Positions 3,338-24,000 of a DNA stretch of 24,000 nt are shown here, one piece after another. Source of the stretch: an uncultured Clostridia bacterium (GTDB taxonomy: Bacteria > Bacillota > Clostridia > DSM-8532); the NCBI GenBank assembly GCA_942493335.1, contig OW818693.1, positions 1,566,644-1,590,643 on the forward strand. The letters are read 5' to 3'. The notes below the pieces were generated by a model that ran no database searches, had not been told where the DNA came from, and saw nothing but the letters and a program-made list of their open reading frames with translations. The position numbers and the translations under genes are program-made. The first letter of the stretch is position 1. Each line of letters begins with the position of its first letter.

Positions 3338-3400
3338 CATGCCTGTAAAAAGGAAATACTTGTTCAGTGGCTTGGAAAGACATAGATAGGGAGATTTCTA

Positions 3401-3416: not shown

Positions 3417-3467
3417 CTCGATTTTCTATACGATAATGTGCTGATGCTTTGACGAAAACTATACACT

Positions 3468-4899: not shown

Positions 4900-7800
4900 T
4901 CACCCAATACCGAAGAACTTCTCGAAAAAGCGCTCAAGGATAGACGCAATCTTGTCCTTGATTGATTTACGCTTCCCGCCAAACCGTGAGACTGGAGGCA
5001 TGATTGCATCAAACTCCATGCCCGTCACCTTCAATACGCCATCCTTCATGGCATTGTCGATATAACGGCGGGTCTCTTCCGGCTTCAGGTTTTCTGCCGT
5101 GATGATTTCGACAAGTTCCTTCTCCTTTTTTTCCGCAACATGCTGTTTCCAACTGCCCCGAACATCTCCGACGGAGTTCACCGTCGCGATAAACGATTCG
5201 ATGAGGTCTTTCTTACTGCGGAGTTGGATGCTTGAATCAATGGCTCGGTCGATGGCAGCCAAGGCTTCCTTATCCTTGCAGTTCGATTTGTGGTATTTCT
5301 CAATCAACGCAAGGATGTAATCGATATTTATTTCAATTTGCCGAATCAACTCGATTTCAAACTCGATGTCATCGTTAATGTTTTCTTTTCCCTCGCCCCT
5401 ATCCCTGACAAAGTTCTGATAAATGTCAATGTAGCGGCTTTGATAATCCTGTAGGTCACGTTCCGTCAAAAGCTCGTTTCCAATGAATTCATCAAAAGTG
5501 GCAAGGATGTTGCGCATCTTCAGGATGGACCCGAACAGCTTAACGAAATCCTTCTGGTTTTGCTCGCCAATCAAGGTCGAAGTCAGCGGAAATCTGCCCA
5601 GCAATGTGTTTACGAGGGTTTCATACCCCTCATGATAAACACCCTTTTCGTCAAAGCCTTTGTAGTACGCTTCGTATGGCTTCAAAAGAATAATGCCCCC
5701 TGCGTCCTTGTCTCCAAAAAGCGACAGTGCCTCATCCGTTTCGTCTTGGAGATTCCTGAAACAAATAATGTTCCCGTAGGTTTTTACGGAGTTCAAAATC
5801 CGGTTTGTTCGGGAAAAGGCTTGCAACAGTCCATGATGTTTCAGGTTTTTGTCGACCCAAAGTGTGTTGAGCGTTGTTGCATCAAAGCCTGTGAGAAAAA
5901 TGTTGACGACAATAACCATGTCGACTTCCCGGGACTTGATACGCATGGACAGGTCTTTGTAGTAGTTCTCAAATCGGTCTGCGTCTGTACAAAAATTTGT
6001 GTTGAAGATTGTGTTGTAGTCCCTAATTGCCGCTTCAAGAAAATCACGCGAAGTCTTGTCGAGCGCATCCGTATCGAATTCCTCATCCGGGAGGGAATCG
6101 TTCGGGTCCTCCTCATTTTGCGCAAAGCTGAAAATTGTTGCAATGGTTAGTTGTTGGCCCGATTCCGCAAGCTGCTTTTTGAACTCAGCATAGTACATTT
6201 TGGCCATCTTGATAGAGCTGACCGCAAAGATAGAGTTGAACCCCATGACGCGCTTGCCCTTAAGCGAATACGCGCTGTTTCGTCGCGTTTTCTGGTCAAA
6301 ATGCTCAAGGATATACTTGGACACCTCTCGAACTCTCACAGGCGATTCCATGGCATGTTCCCTGTCAATGGCGTGGACCTGTTTGTCCTTGATTCCCGCC
6401 TTTTCCTTGATGGTGTTCGTGTAGTCGACCTTGAATGGTAAAACGTTCTGGTCGTTTATGGCATCAATAATGGTGTAGGAGTGGAGCTTGGCACCAAATA
6501 GAGATTCCGTTGTTTTGATGACTGAATCCTTGCGTACAGCGTTTTTGGCGTAAATGGGCGTCCCGGTAAACCCAAACAGATAGTAGTTCTTGAATGCATC
6601 GGTAATTTGCTTGTGCATGTCACCAAACTGGGAACGATGGCATTCATCAAAGATGATGACCACCTGCTTGTTAAAGACAGCATGCCCCTTGTTCCGCCTG
6701 ATGAACATATCCATCTTTTGAATGGTCGTGATGATAATGTGGGCGTCGGGGTTGGCCAGCTGCTTCTGAAGCACCTTGGTTGAGGTGTTGCCGTTTGCTG
6801 CCCCCTTCTCAAATTTGTCATACTCTTTCATCGTCTGATAGTCCAAATCTTTCCTATCGACGACAAACAGGACTTTGTCGATGAATGGCAGCCCTGCGGC
6901 CAACTGAGCAGTTTTGTAGGATGTCAGTGTTTTCCCACTACCCGTAGAGTGGGAGCAATACCCACCTGCGTCAATGGTGCCTGCCTTCTTGTAGTTGTGG
7001 GAGATGTTGATTTTATTGATAATCTTCTCTGTCGCCGCTATCTGATAGGGCCGGAGCACAAGCAACAGGTTCTCGACGGTAAACACGCAATACCTTGTCA
7101 GGATGTTCAACAAGGTATGCCTAGAGAAGAATGTCTTTGTGAAATCAACAAGGTCGTCAATTCGACGATTCTTCTCATCTGCCCAGAACGAGGTGAATTC
7201 ATAACTGTTACTGGTCTTCTTGCTTTTCTCCTTTGATGCCGTGGCAAGCTCCCTCACGTGGCTATCGCGGGTTGTGTTGGAATAGTATTTTGTCGACGTT
7301 CCATTGGAGATGACAAACAACTGAACATACTCATACAGACCGTTTGAGGCCCAGAAACTGTCGCGCTGGTATCGGTTGATTTGATTGAACGCTTCCCGGA
7401 GCGCGATTCCTCTCCGCTTCAACTCAAAATGGACAAGAGGCAGTCCATTGACCAAAATTGTAACATCATATCTGGTATTGTGGGCCCCTTCACTTTCCTG
7501 GTACTGGTTGAGAACCTGCAACTGGTTGTTATGGACCATTTTCTTGTCGATGAGCATAATGTTCTTACTCGTGCCATCATCTCGCTTGAGAAGTTGAATG
7601 TGGTCGACCTGAATCTTGCGGGTCTTCTCAACAATCCCCTCCGTCGAGTTCGAGATGCATTCCTTGTAGAAGCGGGTCCACTCATCGTCAGAAAATGTAA
7701 AATCATTCAGCAACTCAAGCTGCTTTCTCAGATTCGTAATCATCTCTTGCGAGTTGTGAATCGTCGCATACTCATATCCCTGTGACACGAGCTGTTTGAT

Positions 7801-7917
7801 AAACTCGCGTTCAAGGTCTGCCTCGCTTTGATAGGACGTTTGACGAGTCTGGGATGGCTCATATTCCGTTACTACTGTTTTCTCGTCAGTCGAGGCGACC
7901 ACATGATAAACTTTCAT
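4900..7917 (-). CDS. hsdR: Type I restriction enzyme R subunit (helicase/endonuclease), 1005 aa
   Basis: SF2 helicase motifs: STGSGKTLTS (Walker A), FDECHRS (DEAH-type motif II), FTGTP. Size and position immediately after hsdS fit. AAGGAG RBS. Confidence 0.95.
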   Translation of the reverse strand: MKVYHVVASTDEKTVVTEYEPSQTRQTSYQSEADLEREFIKQLVSQGYEYATIHNSQEMITNLRKQLELLNDFTFSDDEWTRFYKECISNSTEGIVEKTRKIQVDHIQLLKRDDGTSKNIMLIDKKMVHNNQLQVLNQYQESEGAHNTRYDVTILVNGLPLVHFELKRRGIALREAFNQINRYQRDSFWASNGLYEYVQLFVISNGTSTKYYSNTTRDSHVRELATASKEKSKKTSNSYEFTSFWADEKNRRIDDLVDFTKTFFSRHTLLNILTRYCVFTVENLLLVLRPYQIAATEKIINKINISHNYKKAGTIDAGGYCSHSTGSGKTLTSYKTAQLAAGLPFIDKVLFVVDRKDLDYQTMKEYDKFEKGAANGNTSTKVLQKQLANPDAHIIITTIQKMDMFIRRNKGHAVFNKQVVIIFDECHRSQFGDMHKQITDAFKNYYLFGFTGTPIYAKNAVRKDSVIKTTESLFGAKLHSYTIIDAINDQNVLPFKVDYTNTIKEKAGIKDKQVHAIDREHAMESPVRVREVSKYILEHFDQKTRRNSAYSLKGKRVMGFNSIFAVSSIKMAKMYYAEFKKQLAESGQQLTIATIFSFAQNEEDPNDSLPDEEFDTDALDKTSRDFLEAAIRDYNTIFNTNFCTDADRFENYYKDLSMRIKSREVDMVIVVNIFLTGFDATTLNTLWVDKNLKHHGLLQAFSRTNRILNSVKTYGNIICFRNLQDETDEALSLFGDKDAGGIILLKPYEAYYKGFDEKGVYHEGYETLVNTLLGRFPLTSTLIGEQNQKDFVKLFGSILKMRNILATFDEFIGNELLTERDLQDYQSRYIDIYQNFVRDRGEGKENINDDIEFEIELIRQIEINIDYILALIEKYHKSNCKDKEALAAIDRAIDSSIQLRSKKDLIESFIATVNSVGDVRGSWKQHVAEKKEKELVEIITAENLKPEETRRYIDNAMKDGVLKVTGMEFDAIMPPVSRFGGKRKSIKDKIASILERFFEKFFGIG

Positions 7918-7929
7918 TCGTACTCCTTC

Positions 7930-9180
7930 TCACATCGCCTTTTCAAAGGAAAGCAGTTTGTCTCTGTAGTATTCGTACTGCTGCTGCCGTGCTTCTATTT
8001 CGGCGGGCAGACCCGTCGTCAAATCATTGCAGAGCAAATCAAATTGGTCGAGGATGCGGACTATTTCTTCCTGAATGGGGAGAGGGGGAACGAGAACAGG
8101 TACGCGAGCTATAGAATTACTCATTAACTTTGGGTTGCCCATCCCGGGACTAACATAGTCCTTAACAATTGACTGGAGCCAATAGAACAGAAAACGGGTA
8201 CATAATTCTGTAGGGATAGACACGCTTAAGAGGCCACATACATTTGTAATGCTGAATTTCTCGTTCGAATGGAAGAATACAGACCCTGCATTTGCGCCAT
8301 CAGTCGTCCATGTGATAGATTCAAAGTCATAATCATAATTGTCAATGTATCCGAATATTCCGTTGTTCAATGTCTGCGATGAGTACACTGGATAAACTCC
8401 AGCATTAGCTCGAAGATAGTCTTTTGACATAACGCGCCCACGAGTTATCATACACATCTCGTCAAGATTTTTATACTCCACCCCATCCGGGCATAACTCA
8501 TCAATCAGTTTCCGAATCGTCCCAGTCTTCCTCTGCAGACCTTCTTCCGAAAAATCAAGCATCTTATTTTGATAATACTCATACTGCTGCTTGCGAGCCG
8601 TCCGCTCCGCGTTTAGCTCCGCCTTCAATTCCGTTGTCAACTCCGTGAATGTGTCGAGGATGCGGACAATTTCTTCCTGAATGGAGAGAGGGGGGATGGG
8701 GATTTCAATTGCCTTTATTGCTGGTACACTTGAATGAACGACTTTGCTCTTCACTTTACCAGCACTCTTATGTTTTTGTGCATCTGCTGTCGACAGGACA
8801 TACGAAAGATACTTAGGGTTCTGATTATGCTTCAGTACAACCATGTCGCCGCCAGCCAAACACTTTTCATGGCCAACGTACGCTGTTGACTTAGCGATAT
8901 CCGCCACGTTTTCTCCCGTTATAGCAAATAAAATGTCACCGTGCTCGAAATATTTCGGATTTTGAATGGCGGCTTCTTCAGTGTGTGAAACACACTCATC
9001 AAACCATATCCCATATGTTGTATAAATTTCCCCATACCGGACACAGGAAATCCCATATGGGACTACCTGGTCTCGCGTGATTCCCGAACCCCGATAAACA
9101 TCGGTAGCGATTTCTCCAATAGCTTTTATCTCTACCCCATCGGGGCACAGCTCCGCAATCAGTTCTTCAATCCTGCTCAT
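7930..9180 (-). CDS. hsdS: Type I restriction enzyme specificity subunit, two TRDs
   Basis: Two-fold internal architecture. Each half begins (I/L)xELCPDGVE(I/Y)K and ends with the conserved spacer (L/P)(S/P)IQEEIVRILD...QQYEYY. ATGA overlap with the hsdM stop (9177-9180). Confidence 0.95.
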   Translation of the reverse strand: MSRIEELIAELCPDGVEIKAIGEIATDVYRGSGITRDQVVPYGISCVRYGEIYTTYGIWFDECVSHTEEAAIQNPKYFEHGDILFAITGENVADIAKSTAYVGHEKCLAGGDMVVLKHNQNPKYLSYVLSTADAQKHKSAGKVKSKVVHSSVPAIKAIEIPIPPLSIQEEIVRILDTFTELTTELKAELNAERTARKQQYEYYQNKMLDFSEEGLQRKTGTIRKLIDELCPDGVEYKNLDEMCMITRGRVMSKDYLRANAGVYPVYSSQTLNNGIFGYIDNYDYDFESITWTTDGANAGSVFFHSNEKFSITNVCGLLSVSIPTELCTRFLFYWLQSIVKDYVSPGMGNPKLMSNSIARVPVLVPPLPIQEEIVRILDQFDLLCNDLTTGLPAEIEARQQQYEYYRDKLLSFEKAM

Positions 9181-10745
9181 GCTTCCACCTCGATTTCATC
9201 GATAATTGCCGCAATTTTGTCGCGAAGCTGCTGAGCCCTGGTGACGATTGTTTCAAGCCGTTCGTTCAATTCAGTAATATCAACCACTTCTCGCAAGTCT
9301 TTTTGCTCAACGTATGACGAGACGGATAGATTATAGCCATTCTCGGCAATCTGTTTGTTAGGGACAACCTTTACCATGTGTTCGACATCCTGACGGCCCC
9401 ACACAGCCTTCAGTATGTTTGCAATGTTATCATCTGTCAGCTTGTTGCCGTTGGTTACCTTAACGCATTCTTTAGAAGCGTCAACAAATACCGTCGTACT
9501 GGCCTTTTTGTTCTTCTTTAGGACCAAGATATTTGTGGAGATAGAGGTTCCATAAAACAAGGACCCTGGGAGCTGGATGTTTGCTTCGACATAATTGTTG
9601 TCAATCAGATACTGCCGAATCTTTTGCTCAGCTCCGCCCCGATACATAATTCCAGGAAAACAAACAATGGCCGCGACGCCGTTTTCCGACAGCCATGACA
9701 ACGAATGAAGAATGAACGCAAAATCAGCCTTTGATTTCGGGGCAAGCACTCCGGCGGGGGCAAATCTTGGGTCGTTGATAAGTGTTGGGCTCCCATCCCC
9801 AATCCAACGGACGCTGTAAGGTGGATTCGATACGATAGCTTCAAAGGGTTCTTCGTCCCAGTGGTGTGGCTCAGTCAGGGTGTCTCCATGCTTAATGTCA
9901 AACTTGTCAGGGCCGACATCATGCAGGAACATGTTAATTTTGCACAACTGGCTGGTGACCGACGAAATCTCCTGCCCGTAGAAACCCATTCTGACATTTT
10001 CCTTGCCAAGAATCTTGGCAAACTTCAGCAGAAGTGAGCCACTCCCGCATGCGGGGTCATAAACCTTGTTGACTTCCGTTCTTCCATATAGTGCCAAATG
10101 AGCCAGGAGCATCGATGCTTCAGGCGGCGTGAAATATTCTCCGCCCGATTTCCCTGCATTGGACGCATACATCCCCATAAGGTATTCGTATGCATCTCCA
10201 AACGCGTCAATGGAGCTGCCATGGCCGTATCCAAAATCCATTTCGCCGATGCCATTCATCAACTTGACGAGTGCAGAATTCCTACTCGCAACGGTTGCTC
10301 CGAGTTTGTTGCTGTTGACATCAAGTTCGTTAAACAATCCCTTAAAGTCTTCCTCACTCTCATAACCGCGAGCGGATGCCTCAATGGCGTCGAGAGCCTT
10401 TCCCAGCTTTTCATTGATGTTGGGGTCAGATGAAGCATTCTTACGGACATTGCAAAAGAGCTGGCTGGGAAGAATGAAGAACCCCTTTACTTGGACGAAT
10501 TCTTCGCGAGCCTGCTCTGCATCTTCATCGGAAATTTCAGAATACTTGAACCCAATATTCCCAGCAGCTTCTTCGCCCTTGTTGATATAGTTTTCTTGGT
10601 TCTCGGAAATATACCGATAGAACAACATCCCAAGAACATATTGCTTGAAGTCCCATCCATCCACGCTACCACGTAAATCGTTCGCAATTGCCCAAATCCC
10701 CTTGTACAGTTCGCTTCTTTCAACCTCACGTTTGTTTTCTGCCAT
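9177..10745 (-). CDS. hsdM: Type I restriction enzyme M subunit (N6-adenine DNA methyltransferase)
   Basis: SAM-binding motif I VYDPACGSGSLLL and catalytic motif IV IVSNPPYS. HsdM-type N-terminal helical domain. AAGGAG RBS. Confidence 0.95.
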   Translation of the reverse strand: MAENKREVERSELYKGIWAIANDLRGSVDGWDFKQYVLGMLFYRYISENQENYINKGEEAAGNIGFKYSEISDEDAEQAREEFVQVKGFFILPSQLFCNVRKNASSDPNINEKLGKALDAIEASARGYESEEDFKGLFNELDVNSNKLGATVASRNSALVKLMNGIGEMDFGYGHGSSIDAFGDAYEYLMGMYASNAGKSGGEYFTPPEASMLLAHLALYGRTEVNKVYDPACGSGSLLLKFAKILGKENVRMGFYGQEISSVTSQLCKINMFLHDVGPDKFDIKHGDTLTEPHHWDEEPFEAIVSNPPYSVRWIGDGSPTLINDPRFAPAGVLAPKSKADFAFILHSLSWLSENGVAAIVCFPGIMYRGGAEQKIRQYLIDNNYVEANIQLPGSLFYGTSISTNILVLKKNKKASTTVFVDASKECVKVTNGNKLTDDNIANILKAVWGRQDVEHMVKVVPNKQIAENGYNLSVSSYVEQKDLREVVDITELNERLETIVTRAQQLRDKIAAIIDEIEVEA

Positions 10746-13447: not shown

Positions 13448-14530
13448 ATGAGCCAAAGAATCACAATCTACCCGCTTGGAAACGCCGAAACCATTTTATT
13501 AGAACTCTCAAACAATAAGAGAATTCTCATAGACTATGCTGCAATGCGCACTGAAGAAGAGGGCGATAAGCGTTATGACATCACCACAACGCTAGTAAAA
13601 TTTAGTTCTTTCGACGTTGTTATGTTTAGTCATGCCCATGAAGACCACGTTAAGGGTGCGAAAGACTTTTTTGAGTTTGACCATGCCGAAAAATACCAGG
13701 GTAATGGGCGTGTGAAAATCAAGGAACTTTGGGTTTCATCTGCGTTTGTGCTTGATTCTAGTGTCAGCGAAGATGCTCGTGTTATTCGCCAAGAAGCACG
13801 CCACCGCATAAAGAAGGGCTATGGGATAAAAGTGTTCGCTGAGCCCGATAAACTCGACCAATGGCTTATTGATAATGACCTGTCAACTGACGATAGTGAA
13901 AACTCCATAATCCACGCAGGAACATTACTAAAAAATAAAGACCACTGCCTTGGAGATGAGCTTGATGTATTTGTCCATGCACCGTTCTCAGAGGACGCCA
14001 ATGAGAGTGAAGATAGAAATGACCCATCAATTGTTTTGCAGCTTAGGTTAGCAAATTTTTCGCGGACTACAACCATCTTCGTTACAGGCGATGCTCCACA
14101 TGAAATTCTTGATAAAATAGTCGAGCGTTCTGAAAAGGCCGGTAATGATAGCTATCTATACTGGGATTTATATGACATACCACACCATTGCAGTCATACC
14201 GGGCTATCAGACGAACGTGGAGAGAAAGTAACAGATACTTCTGAAAATATCAAACGCCTATTATCCAATTATTCTAGAAAGAACGCCGTCATGATAGCTT
14301 CATGTCGGGCGTTTTGTGATGTAGGTGACGACGACCCTCTACCGCCTCATTTTCAAGCAAAAGATGCTTATATAAAATATAGTGGCGAGAAGGAGTTCAT
14401 CGCGACAATGGAATACCCTAATAAAGTCAATCCTCAACCGCTGGTTTACGAAATCGATATGTTTGGAATAACCAAGAAAGTAGTCACGGCAAGCCCCATT
14501 ATAACTTCGCCAGCACCGAGGGCAGGATAA
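13448..14530 (+). CDS. Metallo-beta-lactamase-fold hydrolase (360 aa) with a Pro/Ser-rich C-terminal tail ending in Gly
   Basis: N-terminal ITIYPLGNAETILLEL..RILIDYA strand pattern. H62-A-H-E-D-H67 (HxHxDH zinc motif). No signal peptide. C-terminus ...KKVVTASPIITSPAPRAG*. GAGGGGGG RBS 8 nt upstream. The stop overlaps the next start (TAATG). Confidence 0.85.
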   Translation: MSQRITIYPLGNAETILLELSNNKRILIDYAAMRTEEEGDKRYDITTTLVKFSSFDVVMFSHAHEDHVKGAKDFFEFDHAEKYQGNGRVKIKELWVSSAFVLDSSVSEDARVIRQEARHRIKKGYGIKVFAEPDKLDQWLIDNDLSTDDSENSIIHAGTLLKNKDHCLGDELDVFVHAPFSEDANESEDRNDPSIVLQLRLANFSRTTTIFVTGDAPHEILDKIVERSEKAGNDSYLYWDLYDIPHHCSHTGLSDERGEKVTDTSENIKRLLSNYSRKNAVMIASCRAFCDVGDDDPLPPHFQAKDAYIKYSGEKEFIATMEYPNKVNPQPLVYEIDMFGITKKVVTASPIITSPAPRAG

Positions 14531-16791
14531 TGGAAACTGATATCACCACTCCAATGTGCGAGATAACAAGGCAAATCCTTGTTGTTTTGTGTAGCGGTGG
14601 CCCATATCAGGCTACCCTGCAATGCATTGAGAATGTGAGACATGATAATACCTTAACAGACATGCTCAAAATCGAATACAATATCGCAGGATTGTGTCAG
14701 TATCCAAAATATGAAATCCGCCGAGTCGAGCCAATTACTATTTGGGTACAAGATGGACAGTTGCCGATAGTCGAAGCAAGAGAAGATTTCCCGATAGTGC
14801 CTCATCTTGTTGTCAATCGTGATGGCATGAAGACGCTCTGTTATACCGATTTCTCATATTCTGAGATAAAGCACAGACTGAACGGACAATTTATTGTGGA
14901 GTGCATCAACGAGTGGTTTGTAAGAACCGCTCGTGATGAACTTCACCGAGATGACCAGCCTCTTGAACCTTTCTTTTTCGGGGTCCAAGACATGATTGTC
15001 GTAAAGAAGCAGTTTTTTCATAATTATTGTGCAAAATTCAAAGAAATTCAACAAAACAATCGTCTGACATTACAGCAAGTCCCCGACGGTGTCAACGGGA
15101 CAGGGGTATACCTTTACGTTGTTATTAGGTTGAATATCCCACCTAGTAAAGATAACATTATCCATCATCCTCCGAAGTCATTAGGAGATTTATTTGCTCT
15201 TTTTTCATCGAAGCACATCGAACAGCAGCTTATGACCGAATTGTGGGAAATTCTCAAAATAAGGCTTAATAAGAAAAATTTTCAATCTACATTCGTCAAT
15301 ATGTCTTTTCTGTTTTGTTTACCCTGCATCATCTTTTTGCATATCCCACAAAGAAGAAAAAAAACAAGTATTATCGAAACATCAGATAATCGTGTGTTTA
15401 TAACCAACGGTCACAGATTCGGCGATATTCTCAATGATTTTGGTATCCATCGACAGATAATTGTTGGCGAAAAAAAAAGTCAAGAATATAAGTTAACCAG
15501 TACCGGCAAAAATTATCACGGCGAAAACATCAGCATCAGTCAACTCAATCTTCACTTTGAAACAACGCCTCCACTTGCCAGAATATATAGCGGAATCAAT
15601 GAAGGCTATCAACATAAATATTTCGTACTCATCGGTGCAGGAGCCTTAGGCTCTCAGGTGTATGTTAATTGTTTACGCTCAGGTTTTGGGAAATGGGCAA
15701 TTATTGATTTCGATGTTTTTTTGCCCCACAACCTTACTCGGCATGTTCTTTCACAATCTTCAGTTGGACAACCGAAGGCAACAGAGCTAGTGCAATATGC
15801 TAATTCTGTCATTGAGAATCCTGAAGTATGCGCTTATGTAGCTGACGTTCTTGACCATCATAGCGCCGACATTCTTATGACCTTAGCAACAGCCGATGTG
15901 ATAGTAGACGTTTCCACATCGGTCGCGGTGGAACGAATGCTTGCCATAGACACGAAAACAAAAGCACGATGTATTTCGCTCTTCTTAAATCCACGAGGCG
16001 ATTGTCTTGTTATGCTTTGTGAAGACTCGGAGCGAACCATTACACTCGACCAATTGGAGATGCAGTTGAACGCAATACTGATTAACGAGACTGATTTGGA
16101 GAATTTCTATTGTTTGCCAACAACTATAGCATACGCTACATCTTGTCGCGACATAACTACTACTATTCCGCAAGAAAACATTGCATTAACTGGCGCCGTC
16201 GCAAGCAAAGAGTTGAAATTAGCTCAAGAAAACATGTCATCAAATATCGTTGTCTGGAAAATAAGCAACGATGGAATTGCAGCACAAAGATATGCTGGCG
16301 AACGATGGCATGAAATATCTTGTGGTGATTGGCGAGTGTTGATGCGCTACTCCTTGCTGCATTCTCTCCAAGAAAAGAGAATCGAACGTCAACCGAATGA
16401 AACCGGCGGTGTTCTTATTGGTAATTATGACTTTTCACGTAAGATAATTTATGTCGTCGACATGATTTTTTCACCAAGTGACAGTATTGAGGTCCCTTCC
16501 TCATATATCCGAGGCTGCAAAAACTTACCTGAGCAGATAAATCAAATATCAAAAAGAACATTTAACGGTCTTTTCTATATCGGGGAATGGCATAGCCACC
16601 CCAGCCAGAGCACTGCGATGAGCTGTGCTGATGAAAAGCTTCTCCGCACAATTAGCGATGTTTGTAAAGCCAACTGTCTACTCGGTGCTATGATTATTTG
16701 CGGGAGTAATAGCAATTTATCTTTTTATCTTCGTGATGATACTATGGTTTTTTCTGAGACGTTCATATTCGACAATACTGGACAACGATAA
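14530..16791 (+). CDS. E2(UBC)-like / E1 (ThiF-MoeB) / JAB triple-domain protein, 753 aa
   Basis: E2-like: DFPIVPHLVVNRDGMKTLCYTD, a His-x11-Cys pattern like HPN...G.iCl of UBC folds, with candidate Cys104 (nt 14839-14841). E1: YFVLIGAGALGSQVYVNCLRSGFGKWAIIDFDVFLPHNLTRH (GxGxxG plus D.D...NL.R). Candidate E1 Cys539 (ATSCRD). JAB: E624 (NETGGVLIG) and H688-S-H690-x7-S698-x2-D701 (EWHSHPSQSTAMSCAD), the canonical JAMM spacing. Confidence 0.9.
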   Translation: METDITTPMCEITRQILVVLCSGGPYQATLQCIENVRHDNTLTDMLKIEYNIAGLCQYPKYEIRRVEPITIWVQDGQLPIVEAREDFPIVPHLVVNRDGMKTLCYTDFSYSEIKHRLNGQFIVECINEWFVRTARDELHRDDQPLEPFFFGVQDMIVVKKQFFHNYCAKFKEIQQNNRLTLQQVPDGVNGTGVYLYVVIRLNIPPSKDNIIHHPPKSLGDLFALFSSKHIEQQLMTELWEILKIRLNKKNFQSTFVNMSFLFCLPCIIFLHIPQRRKKTSIIETSDNRVFITNGHRFGDILNDFGIHRQIIVGEKKSQEYKLTSTGKNYHGENISISQLNLHFETTPPLARIYSGINEGYQHKYFVLIGAGALGSQVYVNCLRSGFGKWAIIDFDVFLPHNLTRHVLSQSSVGQPKATELVQYANSVIENPEVCAYVADVLDHHSADILMTLATADVIVDVSTSVAVERMLAIDTKTKARCISLFLNPRGDCLVMLCEDSERTITLDQLEMQLNAILINETDLENFYCLPTTIAYATSCRDITTTIPQENIALTGAVASKELKLAQENMSSNIVVWKISNDGIAAQRYAGERWHEISCGDWRVLMRYSLLHSLQEKRIERQPNETGGVLIGNYDFSRKIIYVVDMIFSPSDSIEVPSSYIRGCKNLPEQINQISKRTFNGLFYIGEWHSHPSQSTAMSCADEKLLRTISDVCKANCLLGAMIICGSNSNLSFYLRDDTMVFSETFIFDNTGQR

Positions 16792-17251: not shown

Positions 17252-17361
17252 AAGGCCGTCGTATTACGCTGTTGGCTATAAACTTACACGCCCTGTTTGC
17301 AACTGTTGCAATGATTCGTTCTTTATACATGACCCACCTCGCCAGAACGTAGTGCTTCTCG

Positions 17362-17669
17362 ACACCAAGCATAGCGGAGTATAGTCAAATCTCGCACGAA
17401 CGGCACACTCCCTTGTTCAACCTTCCAAAACCACCATGCTCCTTCATGTCTCCCTCATCGCACATTTCTCCACATTTTTCGCATTCATACCACCTGACCC
17501 AAAACGAATCAAACTGCATGTCACTAGATGACGCATCAAAGTGTTGGCGCATCTCAGCCTTTGCCTGTTCATGCTCAAAATCATCGTTATGATGTCCTAT
17601 GCCACCACATCGCGTCATTTGAGGCTCTCGCTGAGCATATTGTCGACGAATAGCTTGAAATGTCTCTGT
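17362..17669. repeat. Direct repeat copy A (3' two-thirds of the zinc-ribbon gene plus about 20 nt of downstream flank)
   Basis: Alignable by eye with 22962-23268 in the same orientation. Roughly three quarters of positions are identical, for example gagtatagtcaaatctc, caaccttccaaaa, caccatgctccttcatgtct, gctgagcatattgtcgacgaat. Confidence 0.7.
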
Positions 17670-17867
17670 AGCCTTCTTGGAATCGAGCTTCTCCTGTTCA
17701 TCATCTTCAGCACTCAAGATTGCGTCATTGTCAAGCCGGTCTATTACCGTCGATGCGAGTCGTTCTTGCTCACGGGCTTCACGTTCTTTTGACTCGTGAA
17801 GCCTCTGCTCAAGTTCTTTATTCAGCCGGTCTCTTTCCCGCTTATCTCGTTCTGCTTTTTCTACCAA
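17385..17867 (-). CDS. Coiled-coil plus C-terminal zinc-ribbon protein (paralog A), 160 aa
   Basis: The charged N-terminus (ERDKRERDRLNKELEQRLHESKEREAREQERL) is predicted coiled-coil. C-terminus WYECEKCGEMCDEGDMKEHGGFGRLNKGVCRSCEI (CxxC...CxxC). TTG start. The reading frame stays open upstream without a start, and a 55-codon ORF with a good SD (ATG 18025, ends 17861) is in another frame, so the 5' end is possibly frameshifted. Confidence 0.6.
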   Translation of the reverse strand: MVEKAERDKRERDRLNKELEQRLHESKEREAREQERLASTVIDRLDNDAILSAEDDEQEKLDSKKATETFQAIRRQYAQREPQMTRCGGIGHHNDDFEHEQAKAEMRQHFDASSSDMQFDSFWVRWYECEKCGEMCDEGDMKEHGGFGRLNKGVCRSCEI

Positions 17868-18069: not shown

Positions 18070-18258
18070 GTTACAAGTTTGAGAGCAAGAGCGTTTTGTG
18101 TATGGCTTTCTGTACAGTTAGTTTATCAGTTGTAATTCTCACTTTGTGTGTTTTGTACGGTAACTTTTTCTTTGTGCTTTGATGTATAGTAACTGCAAAC
18201 ATCTTGAAAGAAACCATTTGTAACCGTGGCAGAGAAGGTGTAGACTTTTGGTGGTTAC
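18070..18258 (+). promoter_or_regulatory. Array of five GTAAC/GTTAC-containing sites upstream of the ATP-grasp operon (candidate operators)
   Basis: GTTAC at 18070 and 18254. GTAAC at 18160, 18189 and 18220. When oriented alike they read T(T/A)GTAAC(C/G). About 0.5 occurrences would be expected by chance in about 240 nt. TTTGT(G/A) is also reiterated about 7 times. Confidence 0.3.
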
Positions 18259-18299
18259 TAATATTGGCAATGAAATCAGTTGTGTTGCAGGAGGTTTGT

Positions 18300-18908
18300 A
18301 TGAATCAAAAGAATCCGCTGTTCTCGTATCGAACTGCTTGTCCTGATAACATTCCGGTGACAGAACAAGAGGTAGCCAGACACTACGACAGCAGAACCGG
18401 TCTTTGGTATGAGGCGGGTGGTGTTCCCGTTATTGAGAAATTCGTGAACTCACGTGTGAGAGATAAGAGGGCTGAAACCCACACAACAGACTCCCGTGAG
18501 GGTATCGACAGAGGCGAAACATCCTCGCCTCCGCCTCGTTATCTGAACGATACTCGAAGAACACAAGCTGGACCAGACGAAACCCTTATAACCGAAACCA
18601 GAGAAAGCATTGACCGAAGTGAAGGTTCTGTTCACTACGAAGACTTTGTGGCTCTAAAAGGACCTGATGAAACGCTGATTACAAAGACAAGGGAAGGTAT
18701 CGACACAAGTGAATCCTCTTCCTTTGTCCCATTTGTTGCAGAAGAATACAAAATCAAGGCATCCGGCTCTGCTGAAACGCTTATAACGCGTTCGAGAGAA
18801 GGTATTGACACAACCGAAAGAAGCAACGAAATACATGACTATATGTTTCAAACCATCCAAACATTCACGCGTGAATCGACCGACAGAAACGAGGAACAAT
18901 CGGAATGA
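18300..18908 (+). CDS. Multi-core graspetide-type precursor protein (202 aa) with five repeats of a T/S- and E/D-rich motif
   Basis: I prefer ATG 18300 (AGGAGG 7 nt upstream) to the TTG at 18204. Repeats: AETHTTDSREGIDRGE, DETLITETRESIDRSE, DETLITKTREGIDTSE, AETLITRSREGIDTTE, QTIQTFTRESTDRNEE. ATGA overlap with the ATP-grasp gene start. Confidence 0.75.
   Translation: MNQKNPLFSYRTACPDNIPVTEQEVARHYDSRTGLWYEAGGVPVIEKFVNSRVRDKRAETHTTDSREGIDRGETSSPPPRYLNDTRRTQAGPDETLITETRESIDRSEGSVHYEDFVALKGPDETLITKTREGIDTSESSSFVPFVAEEYKIKASGSAETLITRSREGIDTTERSNEIHDYMFQTIQTFTRESTDRNEEQSE
18471..18896 (+). repeat. In-frame coding repeats (5 units; 18471-18518, 18576-18623, 18666-18713, 18771-18818, 18849-18896)
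   Basis: Consensus (D/A)ET(L/H)(I/T)Tx(T/S)RE(G/S)IDx(S/T/G)E. The three central units share GAAAC(C/G)CT(T/G)AT(A/T)AC at the DNA level. Spacing is 30-35 codons. Confidence 0.8.
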
Positions 18909-19849
18909 TAACGTGTCCGAAGGTTCTCTTCGTAACAAATCGGGAGGATTTCGCCATCGACTTCCTCCTATATCGGTTCAAAGACAAAGGGATACCCTAT
19001 CTACGTATCAACTCTGAGGATATCACGGAATGTGATATAACCTGGGAATACGGTAAAGAAGTAACCTTTTCATATAGCGGAGACTCTTATGATTTAGAGG
19101 CTGTCAAATCGGTATACTTTCGTCGCGCTCCTTCTATCTTTCCACAAGGGGTTGACCCGACGGACACTCCTTTTCTTAGGGGTGAAAGACGTGATTTCTT
19201 CGAAGGGTTGTATATGACCCTTGAAGCTAGATGGGTGAATCCTCTTTTCAGCACCTACATAGCCGAAAAGAAACTATATCAGCTCAACGTAGCACGGCAA
19301 GTTGGCTTTACCATCCCAAAATCGATAGTCACAAATAGACCACAAGACATCCTCAGCTTTCTTTCGAACGGCCCCAGTATCATGAAACCTATCTCGCATG
19401 GTCTTCAGGTGAAGGTTGGCGAAGCTTACTCAATCTATACATCGGTTATCCAAGCAGCCGATTTCAAGGACCTTGAGAACACCTTTGAAGCACCCGTTCT
19501 GGTACAAACAAGAATTCCAAACACTTGTGATATAAGGGCTACAGTCGTTGGCAACAAGGTATTCGCTGTCGAGATACACCAAGAAGGCGAACCAAATGTT
19601 GATTGGAGAGTGCTCGAAGCAACCAAGCGTTATGTTCTTCACGAATTACCGCCTGATATCATATCCATGATGCTTAACCTGCATAAATCATTAGGGCTTG
19701 TCTACTCAGCCTTCGATTTCATCCTAACACCAGACGGAGAGTATGTGTTCCTTGAAACGAATCCTGCTGGAGAATGGGTTTGGATAGAAAGAGAGACAGG
19801 TCTGCCTATAGCAGAAGCCTTGTGCTCGGAGTTGATTGATGAAAAATAA
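18905..19849 (+). CDS. ATP-grasp peptide macrocyclase (MdnC/MvdD-like, RiPP maturase family), 314 aa
   Basis: VLFVTNREDFAIDFLLYRFKDKGIPYLRINSED (N-terminal precursor-binding domain pattern). DIRATVVGNKVFAVEI...VDWR. GLVYSAFDFILTPDGEYVFLETNPAGEWVWIERETGLPIAEALCSELI closely matches the FLE.NP.GqW.W.E..TG.pI signature of microviridin-type ligases. Confidence 0.9.
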   Translation: MITCPKVLFVTNREDFAIDFLLYRFKDKGIPYLRINSEDITECDITWEYGKEVTFSYSGDSYDLEAVKSVYFRRAPSIFPQGVDPTDTPFLRGERRDFFEGLYMTLEARWVNPLFSTYIAEKKLYQLNVARQVGFTIPKSIVTNRPQDILSFLSNGPSIMKPISHGLQVKVGEAYSIYTSVIQAADFKDLENTFEAPVLVQTRIPNTCDIRATVVGNKVFAVEIHQEGEPNVDWRVLEATKRYVLHELPPDIISMMLNLHKSLGLVYSAFDFILTPDGEYVFLETNPAGEWVWIERETGLPIAEALCSELIDEK

Positions 19850-20861
19850 GCAAAAAACTGTAGATTTGGGTTCCACACAAACTGAGGTGCAACCAAAAAT
19901 CGCTATGGCTGAGAAAAAGCCAATGGTAGCAGCAACAGAACAGAAAGACCCGGTTTGGCAAGACGAGTATCTATCGCCGAACATAGAAAGTAAACCACTA
20001 ACGGTCAAACTAATTTGGAAAAGTATAAAAGACTTTTTCATATTTCTTCTTCATGCAATATCCCCACATGCATATCCAACGCCACCAAAACTAGCTCTCC
20101 CCGATATAACATCAGATGATGAGCATTTAGCCTTCGATATGTGTAAGTCGCTGTATGAAGCATCACATTCAAGAATCGATAATCTTGAAGATAAATCGAT
20201 GAAGTTGCTCCCTTATATCACAGCCCTCTTTGCCTTCTATTCATTTGCTTATCTAAACATAGCGAATATCCCCACAAAGGTATCTTTGTTGACAGCAATG
20301 CTTTTTTTGCTTCTATCTATCATCATTTCCTTTCGTTGTGTTAGCGTAAAAGGGCGTAGAGCCATATTCATCCCTACCATATACGATATGGACGAAAAAC
20401 CACCAAAAGAGCTTTTTAAGAGAAACACAATATCAAAGGGTTACCTGAAATCTGCAATCATAAACCAGTCCGTGGCTGATAACACCGCTGATATCCTACG
20501 CGCTGCAAGAAGCACCTTAACACTCGCTCTGATTATTGGTTTAGTCGGTTGTATGGTTGGTGTTATAGGATTGTTTGGTGCAGAAAAAACTAGTCAGGAC
20601 GTAAAAATCCTTCAACAAAATGAGACAACCATATTGGTGAAAAGCGTTCAAGATGAGGCAATAGCCATACGAGGGTTAACCGAAAGAATAACAAGCAAGT
20701 ATGAGATACAACAGGACAGCGAGAATGGCAAGCTCGAGCGAAAGAACCAGGAGTTGTCAGATGCCCTAGATACCACGACCAAGAAGGTCGATAAACTAGA
20801 AAGTGAACTCAAAAACCTCTTGGAAAAACTCAACACAGAACCTGTTCCAGCAACAAAGTAA
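19839..20861 (+). CDS. Multi-TM membrane protein with C-terminal coiled coil (340 aa)
   Basis: ATG 19839 overlaps the ATP-grasp 3' end by 11 nt, with GGAG about 9 nt upstream. TM segments LLPYITALFAFYSFAYLNI, VSLLTAMLFLLLSIIISF, LTLALIIGLVGCMVGVIGLFG. The segment before TM1 (SHSRIDNLEDKSMKLL) is reminiscent of DUF5706/SLATT-type TM effector N-termini (weak). C-terminal heptad-like ELSDALDTTTKKVDKLESELKNLLEKL. Confidence 0.75.
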   Translation: MKNKQKTVDLGSTQTEVQPKIAMAEKKPMVAATEQKDPVWQDEYLSPNIESKPLTVKLIWKSIKDFFIFLLHAISPHAYPTPPKLALPDITSDDEHLAFDMCKSLYEASHSRIDNLEDKSMKLLPYITALFAFYSFAYLNIANIPTKVSLLTAMLFLLLSIIISFRCVSVKGRRAIFIPTIYDMDEKPPKELFKRNTISKGYLKSAIINQSVADNTADILRAARSTLTLALIIGLVGCMVGVIGLFGAEKTSQDVKILQQNETTILVKSVQDEAIAIRGLTERITSKYEIQQDSENGKLERKNQELSDALDTTTKKVDKLESELKNLLEKLNTEPVPATK

Positions 20862-20886
20862 GGGTATGCGGCGAAGCCGCACACCC
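20862..20886 (+). terminator. GC-rich hairpin immediately after the operon stop codon
   Basis: gggtatgcggc-gaa-gccgcacaccc. 11-bp stem with one mismatch and a 3-nt loop. The trailing T-tract is poor. Confidence 0.5.
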
Positions 20887-21398
20887 TCAATTGCATATTC
20901 TTGCTGTCCTCCTGTTCACCAACCAGATACATCAAATCTGTATCTTAAGAAGAATGTTTCTGTCGCTGAGTTGAAAGCCATATCTGCTAAAGCATTTGGG
21001 TTTATCTCGAAGTCCCAATCCTGCTTGCCTATTATGATGTATACGTATATATCTATCGTACCAGTTAAGAAATATCTTCTGTGGTCAAGCCTCATCCAAG
21101 CAGAAAAGCGTGCATTACTCATCTATTGTTCAGACTCAATGGCCATATCGTCTACCAACACCCATTTATAGCCATCACTTGTCTACCTCATATGATATAC
21201 TGCTCCATAGAGTAATGTAATAAAATCTCAGAATTTGTATATGATGACTAGATATTGATATACAATCAGAGACGTTTCGGAAGCTATTCGAGGACAAGAA
21301 GTTCTACGAAGCCGTCATGGGAGCTGTTGGGAGAGATGTGTATAAGTATTTGATGTCATAGTAACAAAGAGGCTCACTAATTATAGGAGGAGGCAGAA

Positions 21399-22367
21399 AT
21401 GAGAAAAGCACTTTGCGTCGGAATTGACAATTATGAAACAATCAACGACCTGCATGGATGTGTAAATGATGCGAACGGAGTAAAGGCTGTGCTTGACCGG
21501 AACGGTGATAGCACATTGAATTTTCAGACCCGCTTGATGTGTTCGACAAGTGAGAACTCGTATATAAGAAGAGGCGATTTGAAGGACGCAATTGAAGAGT
21601 TATTCAGAAGTGAATCTGAGATAGCGATTCTGTATTATGCAGGGCATGGCTCATATGATGAAAATGGCGGCTATTTATGCACTAGCGAAGTGAGTCGTTC
21701 TGATGACGGTTTATCTCTTGACGATATTATGGGAATAGTGTCACGGTCAAAAGCTCAAAACAAAGTGATTATACTCGATAGTTGCCATAGTGGGCTTGTG
21801 GGAACATCAAATTTGATGCCAAATTATTCTGTATTGCATAACGGAACGACTATTCTGGCCGCATGTGATGAAAAGCAATACGCATCGGAGGCAATGGGGC
21901 ATGGTGTATTTACGACTTTGCTTATAGAAGCGCTTTATGGCGGCGCAATGAATCTTTTAGGCGAGGTGTCACCTGGTAGCATATACTCATACATTGACCG
22001 CTCACTTGGTGGCTGGGAGCAACGTCCAGTGTTTAAGGCAAACATCAAATCCTTTGTGTCCCTAAGAAAAAATTCTCCTCCCATTCCAATAGAAGAATTA
22101 CGGCGCATAAAGGAATTTTTTCCCTCCCCATATGAGGAGTTCTCACTTGACCCCACATACGAGCCGGACAAACACGAGGCTGATATGCAGGATGTAAACA
22201 AAGAACACGAAGCCGTATTCGCAATACTGCAAAAGTATGTTAAGCTGAATTTGGTTGTGCCTGAAGGCGCAGAGCATATGTACTATGCCGCATTAAACCA
22301 CAAGTCTTGCAAATTAACTTCACAAGGTCAGCATTATTGGAATCTTGTTACAAAAGAAACAATATGA
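21399..22367 (+). CDS. Caspase-like (peptidase C14) protease with an uncharacterised C-terminal domain, 322 aa
   Basis: KALCVGIDNYETINDLHGCVNDANGV..., ILYYAGHGS (catalytic His) and VIILDSCHSG (catalytic Cys) form the caspase/metacaspase His-Cys dyad. Residues from about 200 to 322 have no motif I recognise. AGGAGGAGG RBS. Confidence 0.9.
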   Translation: MRKALCVGIDNYETINDLHGCVNDANGVKAVLDRNGDSTLNFQTRLMCSTSENSYIRRGDLKDAIEELFRSESEIAILYYAGHGSYDENGGYLCTSEVSRSDDGLSLDDIMGIVSRSKAQNKVIILDSCHSGLVGTSNLMPNYSVLHNGTTILAACDEKQYASEAMGHGVFTTLLIEALYGGAMNLLGEVSPGSIYSYIDRSLGGWEQRPVFKANIKSFVSLRKNSPPIPIEELRRIKEFFPSPYEEFSLDPTYEPDKHEADMQDVNKEHEAVFAILQKYVKLNLVVPEGAEHMYYAALNHKSCKLTSQGQHYWNLVTKETI

Positions 22368-22424
22368 AATCACCGACTCACCAAGAGGCAAAGGGACAAA
22401 TCAACGAAAGGAATGGTATAGACA

Positions 22425-22811
22425 ATGGTGAAGAAGAACGTATTCATTAGTCATCGCTGGGATTATGAAGAAGACTACGAAAAAATTAGTGCTGTGCTAG
22501 ACCGGACAAAATACGACGTGTCAAATCGCTCGGTTGAGAGTTCGGACCCTCTAGTTGGCACAAAAAAAGAAGTTACAGTCGCTATAAAGGCGAAGATTGA
22601 CAGTGCAAGTGTTGTGCTTGCACCCGCTCGTCCAGCAGCGGTCACATCTGGAAGCATGGGGCGTAAGGAAATTGATTATGCCGTAAGCAAAAAAAAGAAA
22701 ATCATAGCTGTCGATACTGGGACCACGCAATCCGTAGCTAGCTATTGGAAAGAAAACGACATCCCTGTAGTCACATGCCGTAAAGACAGTGTCGAGAATG
22801 CAATAGGATAG
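22425..22811 (+). CDS. TIR-like domain protein (DUF1863 / ThsB-like), 128 aa
   Basis: KNVFISHRWDYEEDYEKI start typical of TIR-like/DUF1863. IDSASVVLAP...SGSMGRKEIDYAVSKKKKIIAV matches the i..s..vivl...S.w...Ei..a...gkpiigv pattern. Lies 57 nt downstream of the caspase-like gene. Weak SD. Confidence 0.6.
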   Translation: MVKKNVFISHRWDYEEDYEKISAVLDRTKYDVSNRSVESSDPLVGTKKEVTVAIKAKIDSASVVLAPARPAAVTSGSMGRKEIDYAVSKKKKIIAVDTGTTQSVASYWKENDIPVVTCRKDSVENAIG

Positions 22812-22842
22812 TATTCTATAATGTCCGCAAAGGCATAATTTA

Positions 22843-22882
22843 GCCCTTAATAGAGCTTGATTACAAGCAAGCTCTATTGAGG
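22843..22882. terminator. Long hairpin between convergent genes (likely bidirectional terminator)
   Basis: cccttaatagagcttg (22843-22858) and caagctctattgaggg (22867-22882) form a 16-bp stem with one mismatch and an 8-nt loop. The T-tract is weak. Confidence 0.55.
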
Positions 22883-22961
22883 GTTAAATTCGTTGCCGCA
22901 GTCACCCATGACATTCAAGAAGAAAGTATATACATGCCATTCCAGGCATGAAGATTTTCAG

Positions 22962-23268
22962 CACCAAAGATAGCAGAGTATAGTCAAATCTCACACGACC
23001 GGCATACCCCCCGATTCAACCTTCCAAAATCACCATGCTCCTTCATGTCTTCCTCGTCGCACAGCGCTCCACACTTTTCGCACTCAAACCATCTGACCCC
23101 AAATGAGTCATACTGTTTCTCAACAGATGAGACGTCAAAGTATTGTCGCATCTCTGTCTTTGCGATTTCATGTTCGACATTATCGTCATGGCGTCCTTTG
23201 ACAATTCGTCGTATGATTTGTGATTCACGCTGAGCATATTGTCGACGAATGGCACGAAATGTCTCAGT
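22962..23268. repeat. Direct repeat copy B (see 17362-17669)
   Basis: Same orientation as copy A. Homology ends at the codons for (T)ETF(Q/R)AIRRQ at the upstream side, and about 20 nt past the stop codon at the downstream side. Confidence 0.7.
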
Positions 23269-23274
23269 TTCCAT
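22984..23274 (-). CDS. Zinc-ribbon protein (paralog B), about 96 aa from ATG 23274
   Basis: METETFRAIRRQYAQRESQ...WFECEKCGALCDEEDMKEHGDFGRLNRGVCRSCEI is collinear with residues 67-160 of the 17385..17867 product. The longer ORF-track start (23367) adds non-protein-like sequence. Confidence 0.6.
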   Translation of the reverse strand: METETFRAIRRQYAQRESQIIRRIVKGRHDDNVEHEIAKTEMRQYFDVSSVEKQYDSFGVRWFECEKCGALCDEEDMKEHGDFGRLNRGVCRSCEI

Positions 23275-23467
23275 CGTGAGAAAAATGGGGGCGCTTCTTT
23301 TTCGTCCTGATAACAGCGAGCATGTCGTTACCGCAGAAAGCGCATGAACAATTGCATCTACGACCATACTCTTCGGGTTTTAGGTCAGCGATATAGACGA
23401 TTTTCCCATTCCTTTTCGCAAAAGGATTTTTAAGGTCACCCATATCCCGATTCTCCATATAGCGCAA
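23264..23467 (-). CDS. Short Cys-rich ORF resembling only the N-terminal zinc finger/HFxH segment of CoiA-like proteins (probable truncated remnant)
   Basis: GKIVYIADLKPEEYGRRCNCSCAFCGNDMLAVIRTKKKRPHFSHDGN* resembles C.C..C...l......pHFaH. It stops right at the repeat boundary and no nuclease domain follows. TTG/ATG start ambiguous, weak SD. Confidence 0.35.
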   Translation of the reverse strand: MRYMENRDMGDLKNPFAKRNGKIVYIADLKPEEYGRRCNCSCAFCGNDMLAVIRTKKKRPHFSHDGN

Positions 23468-23482
23468 ATGTTGAACTGCATA

Positions 23483-24000
23483 TCACCATCGACGCCGAAA
23501 AATCTGTTCGTCTTGCAAGAACTCTTTCAGGCCCATATTCAGTTTCCCAAGTAGCTCATCATCCTTCTCATTCAACGGATTCATCCAATTCGCCTTATCC
23601 TTTGCCCATTCGATGTATCTATGCATTGCGTGATTATCTGTGTCACCATATCCGCCCAGCACACGAATGTACTCATATACTATCAGTGATGCTTGATAAT
23701 TTTCTGCATCAGCAAGAAGCTGCTTTACTTTTTTCACCTCGGCACGTTGCCGTTCCCTAAGTTCAGCGTCCTTCACGGCCTTCATTTGCGCGTCTTCTTC
23801 TCGTTGAATACGTTCAGCACGAGCGATTTCAGCCGCCTGGACAGCCGCCATCACGTTGATGACTATCTCGCCAACCTTTTCTTCGAGCGCTTGGCACTTT
23901 GTATCATTCCACGAACGGAACTTGGAATAGAAGTCCCCTATCCAGAACATGAGCTCTCCTGAATACTCCAAGACCTGCTCCAATGGAGGACTCTGTTCTT
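23483..24000 (-). CDS. Hypothetical coiled-coil protein, 5' end probably beyond the window
   Basis: The frame is open to nt 24000 upstream of the TTG at 23983. Charged helical segment AEIARAERIQREEDAQMKAVKDAELRERQRAEVKKVKQLLADAENY. No family recognised. Confidence 0.55.
   Translation of the reverse strand, partial: EQSPPLEQVLEYSGELMFWIGDFYSKFRSWNDTKCQALEEKVGEIVINVMAAVQAAEIARAERIQREEDAQMKAVKDAELRERQRAEVKKVKQLLADAENYQASLIVYEYIRVLGGYGDTDNHAMHRYIEWAKDKANWMNPLNEKDDELLGKLNMGLKEFLQDEQIFRRRW

Follow-up and report, generated by a model that had tools for sequence, protein, structure and literature searches.

Type IV Thoeris is an anti-phage defense system, described by Rousset et al. (bioRxiv 10.1101/2024.10.24.620036), in which a TIR protein signals to a caspase-like protease. 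Upon infection, the TIR component, which these authors call 'a short TIR-domain protein', produces N7-cyclic ADP-ribose (N7-cADPR), and this nucleotide activates the protease, which cuts proteins after arginine, EF-Tu included. Defense is abolished by the E79Q substitution of the Pseudomonas TIR protein (PsTIR) and by the C129A substitution of its partner protease (PsCaspase). Furthermore, PsCaspase is activated by the metabolites of the E. coli TIR protein (EcTIR), and thus PsTIR and EcTIR, highly divergent from each other, both activate the same effector. Rousset et al. hypothesize that the C-terminal domain of the effector binds N7-cADPR at a dimer interface. Here, we analyze two genes at positions 21,399 to 22,811 of a 24,000-nucleotide stretch of DNA from an uncultured Clostridia bacterium (contig OW818693.1, positions 1,566,644 to 1,590,643; hereafter the window), which encode a protease resembling caspases and a protein with a TIR domain. 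Judged by its sequence, the pair is very probably (roughly 92%) an ordinary member of the already described type IV Thoeris (ThsB–ThsE) system, whose homology, architecture, catalytic residues, synteny and defense-island context it has. The pair comprises the following features.

21399..22367, plus strand: thsE, caspase-like protease effector; ATG start, 322 amino acids; Peptidase_C14, homology to the E. coli protease (EcCaspase), 51–81% identity to the caspases of 80 genome loci
21402..22007, plus strand: protease domain, residues 2–203, with the putative catalytic residues H83 (YAGHGS) and C129 (DSCHSG); Pfam Peptidase_C14
22008..22364, plus strand: C-terminal domain, residues 204–322, presumed N7-cADPR sensor, with the conserved motifs W-E/D-QRPVFK and EHMYYAA
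22425..22811, plus strand: thsB, short TIR-domain protein and putative signal synthase; ATG start, 128 amino acids; TIR_2, ThsB_TIR, PADLOC ThsB and EcTIR homology

The two genes lie on the same strand with 57 nt between them, an adjacency that agrees with type IV Thoeris. An earlier reading of this DNA, made without database searches (the sequence-only reading), had noted the two open reading frames (ORFs), their spacing and the motifs YAGHGS (H83), DSCHSG (C129), VFISHRWDYEED and GRKEIDYA (E82), every one of which is read in the two ORFs. It had also recognized a C14 His/Cys dyad followed by a C-terminal region of approximately 120 residues, and this description holds: Peptidase_C14 matches residues 2–203 (Pfam, E=1.1e-17), and no Pfam family falls on the last 119 residues. 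The ORFs are not chance products because more than 6,800 homologues of the protease were scored, the top ones being mostly of exactly 322 residues, and the TIR protein has 113 close homologues, nearly all of 128 residues.

How closely do the two proteins resemble the validated components? The reference sequences, the full PsTIR (123 residues) and nearly all of EcTIR, were taken from Table S2 of Rousset et al., and the clone of EcTIR listed there led to the E. coli system. Its DNA matches, at 100% identity, a gene labeled 'TIR domain-containing protein' that 14 complete E. coli genomes carry; in E. coli strain 165, the EcTIR gene is followed after 10 nt by the gene of a 321-residue 'caspase family protein', within a prophage. 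A megablast search with the window pair against 5,426 E. coli genomes returned no match. The window protease (322 residues) and EcCaspase (321 residues) share 40% identity over their full length, C-terminal domain included (E=7e-85), and both proteins contain WxQRPVFK, LDP..EP and EHMYYAA. H83 and C129 are invariant in the caspase alignment, and C129 has the same residue number as the essential C129 of PsCaspase. The N-terminus of the window protease, MRKALCVGI, resembles that of PsCaspase, MRKALVVGI. Caspases that are paired with TIRs 71–75% identical to PsTIR (loci L047, L053, L074 and L078 of the genome scan described below) share 49–55% identity with the window protease domain and 57–62% with its C-terminal domain.

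Along its whole length, the TIR protein shares 30% identity with EcTIR (E=9e-15). It scores 27.7 bits against TIR_2 (cut-off 28, E=4.2e-6) and 20.9 bits against ThsB_TIR (cut-off 21.2, E=5e-4) in Pfam, and a PADLOC check, which the sequence-only reading had advised, matched the ThsB model at E=7e-8. Its identity to PsTIR is 17%, with no significant match in a pairwise BLAST comparison, and identity to PsTIR-type TIRs lies between 14% and 19%. An alignment of 14 TIRs from four classes has only five invariant columns, and one of them is E82, aligned with E79 of PsTIR, so the putative catalytic glutamate whose conservation had been proposed as a check is invariant. As to the numbering, the PsTIR mutant is named E79Q in the Results of Rousset et al. 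and E89Q in their western-blot Methods; residue 79 of the Table S2 sequence is glutamate (KWEIQ) and residue 89 is lysine, and thus E79 is the correct number. The AlphaFold2 model of the TIR protein (predicted local distance difference test score (pLDDT) 88, predicted template modeling score 0.83) has the alternating strand/helix pattern of a flavodoxin-like fold, and its Foldseek matches include the SARM1 TIR, ThsB (9b7d), a B. cereus TIR protein (8fz9), EcThsB (8wcf) and plant TIRs. A sequence search of the Protein Data Bank (PDB) with the TIR protein gave no match. The same search with the protease retrieved metacaspases only, so that neither protein led by sequence to a solved component of type IV Thoeris.

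The association of the two genes extends well beyond the window. When two motifs of the C-terminal domain were used to scan a single genome from each GTDB species, at least 584 loci emerged, and the best 80 of these, whose caspases are 51–81% identical to the window protease over residues 1–322, were analyzed. The sequence-only reading had named a lack of synteny in other genomes as a refutation of its proposal; a TIR gene adjoins the caspase gene in 77 of the 80 loci, in 76 within 550 nt. In the other three, the caspase gene continues up to the end of the contig (L040), begins at a contig edge (L066) or is matched in part only (L042). The TIR ORFs adjoining the caspases are typically 122–138 residues long, and therefore 128 residues is a normal size for the system. 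Among caspases at least 63% identical to that of the window, which come mostly from Bacillota and gut metagenome-assembled genomes, the order is caspase then TIR in all loci, as in the window. The 51–56% clade, whose members come from many phyla, has the TIR gene first, like the validated systems, L079 being an exception. The published MacSyFinder rule combines a caspase profile with TIR_2 or ThsB at i-E≤0.1 and at most one gene between them (Rousset et al.), and on the TIR side the window lies well within it (TIR_2, 4.2e-6; ThsB_TIR, 5e-4). On the caspase side, we infer membership of the family from 40–55% sequence identity to its members. They include Flavobacterium sp. CF108, which Table S1 of Rousset et al. 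lists with one caspase and two TIR genes and which appeared in the scan as L083, where the caspase shares 51% identity with that of the window and has two TIR genes upstream. The locus agrees with type IV Thoeris in every respect that sequence can test. The type IV proposal of the sequence-only reading is upheld by the 40% identity to EcCaspase, the 30% identity to EcTIR, the invariant glutamate and the synteny. Its suggestion of a 'compact or divergent relative' has to be dropped because short TIRs are normal here (PsTIR, 123 residues; EcTIR, 133 residues), and its statement that there was no sequence-level evidence of homology is superseded by the full-length matches to EcCaspase and EcTIR.

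The closest comparison is with the type IV Thoeris system of E. coli 328 (genomic copy in NZ_CP020509.1, locus L004). Both loci consist of two genes with products of nearly equal size (TIR, 133 versus 128 residues; caspase, 321 versus 322 residues), and they share the two-domain layout of the caspase, the catalytic His, Cys and Glu residues and the matching Pfam profiles. However, the order is TIR–caspase in E. coli and caspase–TIR in the window, the catalytic Cys lies in DCCQAG there and in DSCHSG here, and the E. coli genes reside in a prophage between lysis genes and the Q antiterminator, whereas those of the window belong to a chromosomal defense island. EcTIR scores 66 bits, well above the ThsB_TIR cut-off, whereas the window TIR falls barely below it. 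The mechanistically characterized system of Pseudomonas sp. 1-7 (PsTIR and PsCaspase) has the same effector family, the same C129 number and the E79 that aligns with E82, but PsTIR belongs to another sequence class (17% identity to the window TIR) and its gene order is reversed relative to the window.

More distant systems share part of the design. Type I Thoeris (ThsB with the SIR2–SLOG effector ThsA) likewise uses a TIR-made signal of the cyclic ADP-ribose type and a separate effector, a logic that the window pair would follow by analogy, and the window TIR matches the PADLOC ThsB and Pfam ThsB_TIR models. However, the effector gene of the window encodes not a SIR2–SLOG protein but a caspase-like protease that carries a C-terminal domain of its own, and the Foldseek matches to solved ThsB structures (9b7d, 190 residues; 8wcf, 160 residues) are distant. 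No effector domain of type I or II Thoeris (SIR2, SLOG or Macro plus transmembrane) occurs in the ORFs flanking the pair. Metacaspases of eukaryotes and bacteria (clan CD, family C14) share the protease fold and the His/Cys dyad, with SGHG and DSCHSG aligning exactly at the dyad motifs of Arabidopsis metacaspase-4 (PDB 6w8s), as well as the basic-residue (Arg) specificity that is reported for PsCaspase. A second deposited metacaspase-4 sequence reads DSAHSG at the DSCHSG position. Nonetheless, this similarity is weak and confined to residues 2–132 (E=1e-5), and the window protease differs in its unique, sensor-like C-terminal domain and its obligate TIR partner. Its match to NF047832 (EACC1-associated caspase) reaches 95.8 bits against a curated cut-off of 140, and the partner here is a TIR protein.

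What does the C-terminal domain contribute? It is conserved from Clostridia to E. coli, with 40% identity to the C-terminal domain of EcCaspase, and across caspases partnered by all TIR classes its identity ranges from 40% to 82%. Relatives paired with PsTIR-like or EcTIR-like TIRs are 55–62% identical in this domain. Across TIR pairings, the C-terminal domain is conserved at least as well as the protease domain: the N- and C-terminal domains are 81% and 78% identical in L008 and 52% and 62% in L047. An exhaustive phmmer search with residues 204–322 retrieved 598 cluster representatives, and nearly all of them carry the domain at approximately residues 200–325 of a 315–340-residue protein, which is the ThsE architecture; in the longer exceptions that were examined, caspase domains are still present. 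An 836-residue metagenomic protein among the matches (P0309) combines TIR_2, TPR repeats, Peptidase_C14 and the ThsE C-terminal domain in one chain. On its domain matches, this protein is a Rosetta-stone fusion that supports a functional link between TIR and caspase. Its TPR repeat domain could be a phage sensor. The AlphaFold2 model of the isolated C-terminal domain is of moderate confidence (pLDDT 70), and its best PDB matches in Foldseek are weak ones to MarR-type winged-helix proteins (E=0.03, template modeling score (TM) 0.44), so the modeled likeness to a MarR-like winged helix is a hint rather than a finding.

By homology to the E. coli 328 and Pseudomonas sp. 1-7 systems, a mechanism can be proposed in which the signal, the function of the C-terminal domain, the specificity of the protease and the phage phenotype would be the same in the window. 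Phage infection would cause the 128-residue TIR protein to convert NAD+ into the cyclic nucleotide N7-cADPR through the catalytic E82. The 119-residue C-terminal domain of the protease, probably within a dimer, would then bind N7-cADPR, and the H83/C129 caspase-like domain would cleave many cellular proteins, including EF-Tu, after arginine. Such promiscuous Arg-specific proteolysis would stop phage replication by abortive infection.

The TIR partners of closely related caspases are diverse. Four kinds of TIR pair with caspases 70–81% identical to that of the window: window-type TIRs (77–88% identity), a class at approximately 40%, EcTIR-like TIRs (57–59% identical to EcTIR; L008, L024 and L035) and a PsTIR-like TIR (L032). 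The EcTIR-like TIRs of L008 and L024 lie beside caspases 74–80% identical to the window protease (C-terminal domain, 78%), and the PsTIR-like TIR of L032 lies beside a caspase that is 71% identical overall and 72% identical in the C-terminal domain. Because the C-terminal domain is conserved across these pairings and EcTIR metabolites activate PsCaspase, all TIR classes are likely to make the same ligand, and the window TIR most probably makes N7-cADPR.

The transcription unit of the pair and its mobile unit can be delimited with three further features.

20859..20889, strand not assigned: GC-rich hairpin directly past the end of the membrane-protein gene that precedes the pair; bounds the pair's own transcription unit on the upstream side
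21386..21393, plus strand: strong Shine-Dalgarno sequence GGAGGAGG; the ATG of the caspase gene follows after 5 nt
22837..22890, strand not assigned: inverted repeat of 26 nt that forms a very stable hairpin, placed between the TIR gene and the convergent minus-strand gene with its end at 22984; minimum free energy −41 kcal/mol, z=−8.4

The last hairpin may be a bidirectional terminator, though it has no U-tract. The AT-rich spacer at 20890–21385 shows no homology to related loci. In blastn comparisons with relatives, similarity runs from approximately 21384, at the ribosome-binding site (21378–21397 depending on the locus), to 22810, at the TIR stop. DNA similarity thus spans essentially the two genes, and therefore the mobile unit here is the two genes alone. 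In L001, L002/L003, L012, L015 and L021, all of which have window-type TIRs, the conserved DNA block extends upstream over a gene of 184–199 residues with an Mrr_cat domain (restriction endonuclease fold), which abuts or overlaps the caspase start (L001, 7430–7984; L002, 6376–6975, overlapping, from Dehalobacter). No remnant of an Mrr_cat gene was found upstream of the window caspase by tblastn (E≤10) or blastn. Mrr_cat appears to be an occasional accessory or neighboring gene rather than a core component because the window, L009 and L011 lack it, and L009 and L011 share the TIR class of the window; Mrr_cat could act as a third component or be a defense gene that travels along with the pair. 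Directly upstream of its caspase gene, L011 also encodes, at 2181–3872, a 563-residue protein that carries TIR_2 at its N-terminus, besides its downstream 128-residue TIR, and this extra protein resembles the 'additional TIR' column of Table S1 of Rousset et al.

Several observations weigh against the assignment of the pair to type IV Thoeris. Both Pfam TIR scores lie barely under their curated cut-offs. The TIR class of the window is known by sequence only, at 30% identity to EcTIR and less than 20% to PsTIR. Gene order is the reverse of that in both validated systems, and PsCaspase is likened to the window protease through its start and through the caspases beside PsTIR-like TIRs, not through its full sequence. 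In Foldseek, human DNPH1, BcmB and a nucleoside 2-deoxyribosyltransferase score like TIRs. Finally, promoter-like matches in the 20890–21385 spacer are no commoner than in shuffled sequence. Could the 128-residue protein instead be a nucleoside 2-deoxyribosyltransferase- or DNPH1-like hydrolase, or an NAD-depleting effector, that merely lies beside an independent caspase? The marginal Pfam scores would allow it, and DNPH1 and BcmB rank among the top Foldseek matches (E approximately 2e-4 to 1e-3, TM approximately 0.6), on a par with the matches to SARM1, to ThsB and to the TIR protein of B. cereus. The sequence-only reading had named such a fold as the outcome that would overturn its proposal, and at the fold level this test does not discriminate. 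The similarity to DNPH1 is at the level of the fold only, as expected for related flavodoxin-like folds. At the sequence level, however, the test favors a TIR: Pfam at E≤1 returned only TIR_2 and ThsB_TIR, with no nucleoside 2-deoxyribosyltransferase or DNPH1 profile. The protein is a TIR because it is directly homologous in sequence to EcTIR, a shown maker of a caspase-activating signal, and retains the invariant glutamate, which the fold cannot decide. The nearly obligate adjacency to a caspase gene and the natural fusion of TIR and caspase in P0309 further argue against a chance neighbor, and we regard the hydrolase explanation as extremely improbable.

A second question is whether the architecture is that of type IV Thoeris but the signal is another ADP-ribose derivative, to which the C-terminal domain of the caspase has co-adapted, so that the pair would be a functional variant. 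The low identity of the window TIR to EcTIR and to PsTIR-type TIRs would fit such a variant, and several different signals are known from Thoeris TIRs. Nonetheless, nearly the same caspase pairs with EcTIR-like (L008, L024) and PsTIR-like (L032) TIRs, which points to an interchangeable ligand, and the divergent EcTIR and PsTIR both activate PsCaspase; a different signal is highly improbable. Slightly less probable still is that the pair is a decayed or silent remnant of the three-gene Mrr_cat cassette, which would have lost Mrr_cat and its promoter and be neither expressed nor functional. Five loci (L001, L002, L012, L015 and L021) carry Mrr_cat directly upstream in one conserved block, and the homology of the window starts only at the ribosome-binding site, with no promoter above chance. 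However, both window ORFs are intact and full-length with all catalytic residues kept, Mrr_cat is missing from both validated systems and from more than 70 of the genome loci, all of which have two genes only, L009 and L011 have the same TIR class without it, and a strong Shine-Dalgarno sequence precedes the caspase gene. Somewhat less remote than these explanations, yet still unlikely, is a scheme in which the caspase is a fixed chassis, TIR sensors are swapped as cassettes, and the TIR class of the window, which in six related loci follows an Mrr_cat gene within one conserved three-gene block, marks a sub-variant with a different phage trigger or with an accessory third component that was lost or never present here. 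We therefore retain the view that the pair is an ordinary type IV Thoeris system, whose local peculiarities, namely gene order, TIR sequence class and the lack of an Mrr_cat gene, are all minor variations.

The window as a whole is a defense island, in which the pair is accompanied by the following genes.

3468–4112, minus strand: AbiEi-like antitoxin gene (PADLOC E=1.7e-37)
4124–4846, minus strand: 240-residue ORF beside the AbiEi-like gene
4900–10745, minus strand: complete type I restriction-modification operon (hsdM 9177–10745, hsdS 7930–9180, hsdR 4900–7917)
13448–16791, plus strand: 360-residue metallo-beta-lactamase-like protein followed, with stop and start overlapping, by a 753-residue Prok-E2_A/ThiF (E1)/Prok-JAB fusion
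18204–20861, plus strand: graspetide-like cluster for a ribosomally synthesized and post-translationally modified peptide, directly upstream of the pair

The AbiEi, restriction-modification, metallo-beta-lactamase/E2–E1–JAB and graspetide genes are independent neighbors of the pair because none of them is syntenic with it in relatives. On the contigs of relatives, exact-protein look-ups placed the pair beside type I restriction-modification and other defense-type genes, and a near-identical match for the whole window was found in neither plasmid nor phage collections. The metallo-beta-lactamase-like protein has weak PADLOC matches to RTasMBL and LmuA. The E2/E1/JAB fusion is a ubiquitin-like conjugation module that adjoins neither a CD-NTase nor a TIR gene. 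The terminal Gly of the window TIR (…NAIG) was considered as a conjugation mark for this gene (14530–16791), as in Cap2/Cap3-associated Thoeris; this idea was rejected because the Gly is not invariant, the gene is separated from the TIR gene by 5.6 kb that hold genes of both strands, and the relatives of the pair are unlinked to E1, E2 or JAB genes.

In the graspetide-like cluster, the three genes have overlapping or abutting starts and stops. The first ORF (18204–18908) contains five repeats of T..T.RE(G/S)ID..E, such as DETLITETRESIDRSE, DETLITKTREGIDTSE and AETLITRSREGIDTTE; the second (18905–19849) encodes an ATP-grasp ribosomal peptide maturase with RimK and MvdD pre-ATP-grasp domains (TIGR04187 E=1e-63, below the cut-off); and the third (19836–20861) encodes a 341-residue membrane and coiled-coil protein. 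A 300-nt direct repeat (17356–17655 and 22955–23254, 79% identical) brackets the 5.3-kb segment that holds this cluster and the Thoeris pair. Its copies are the 3' parts of paralogous minus-strand genes at 17385–17867 and 22984–23367, whose proteins are 71% identical over 94 residues and end in a CxxC...CxxC zinc ribbon, and the repeat may stem from a duplication or mark the place where a cassette was inserted. The minus-strand ORFs 23264–23467 (67 residues; C.C..C, PHFSH) and 22984–23367 overlap and look like one frameshift-broken gene, and a 166-residue coiled-coil ORF (23483–23983) lies upstream of them.

What does this locus add? For the most part, the result confirms an annotation and leaves the understanding of the system type unchanged. 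It turns a 'caspase family protein' and a 'hypothetical protein', unnamed as deposited, into a named and mechanistically understood defense system. For the family, it draws attention to a large, mostly Bacillota, gut-associated ThsE clade with inverted gene order, and the TIR–TPR–caspase fusion and the three-gene Mrr_cat cassette are leads for variants. The exchange of TIRs from at least four sequence classes beside effectors that are 70–81% identical, presumed sensor domain included, amounts to a natural experiment on how TIR sensors diversify against phages under one signal.

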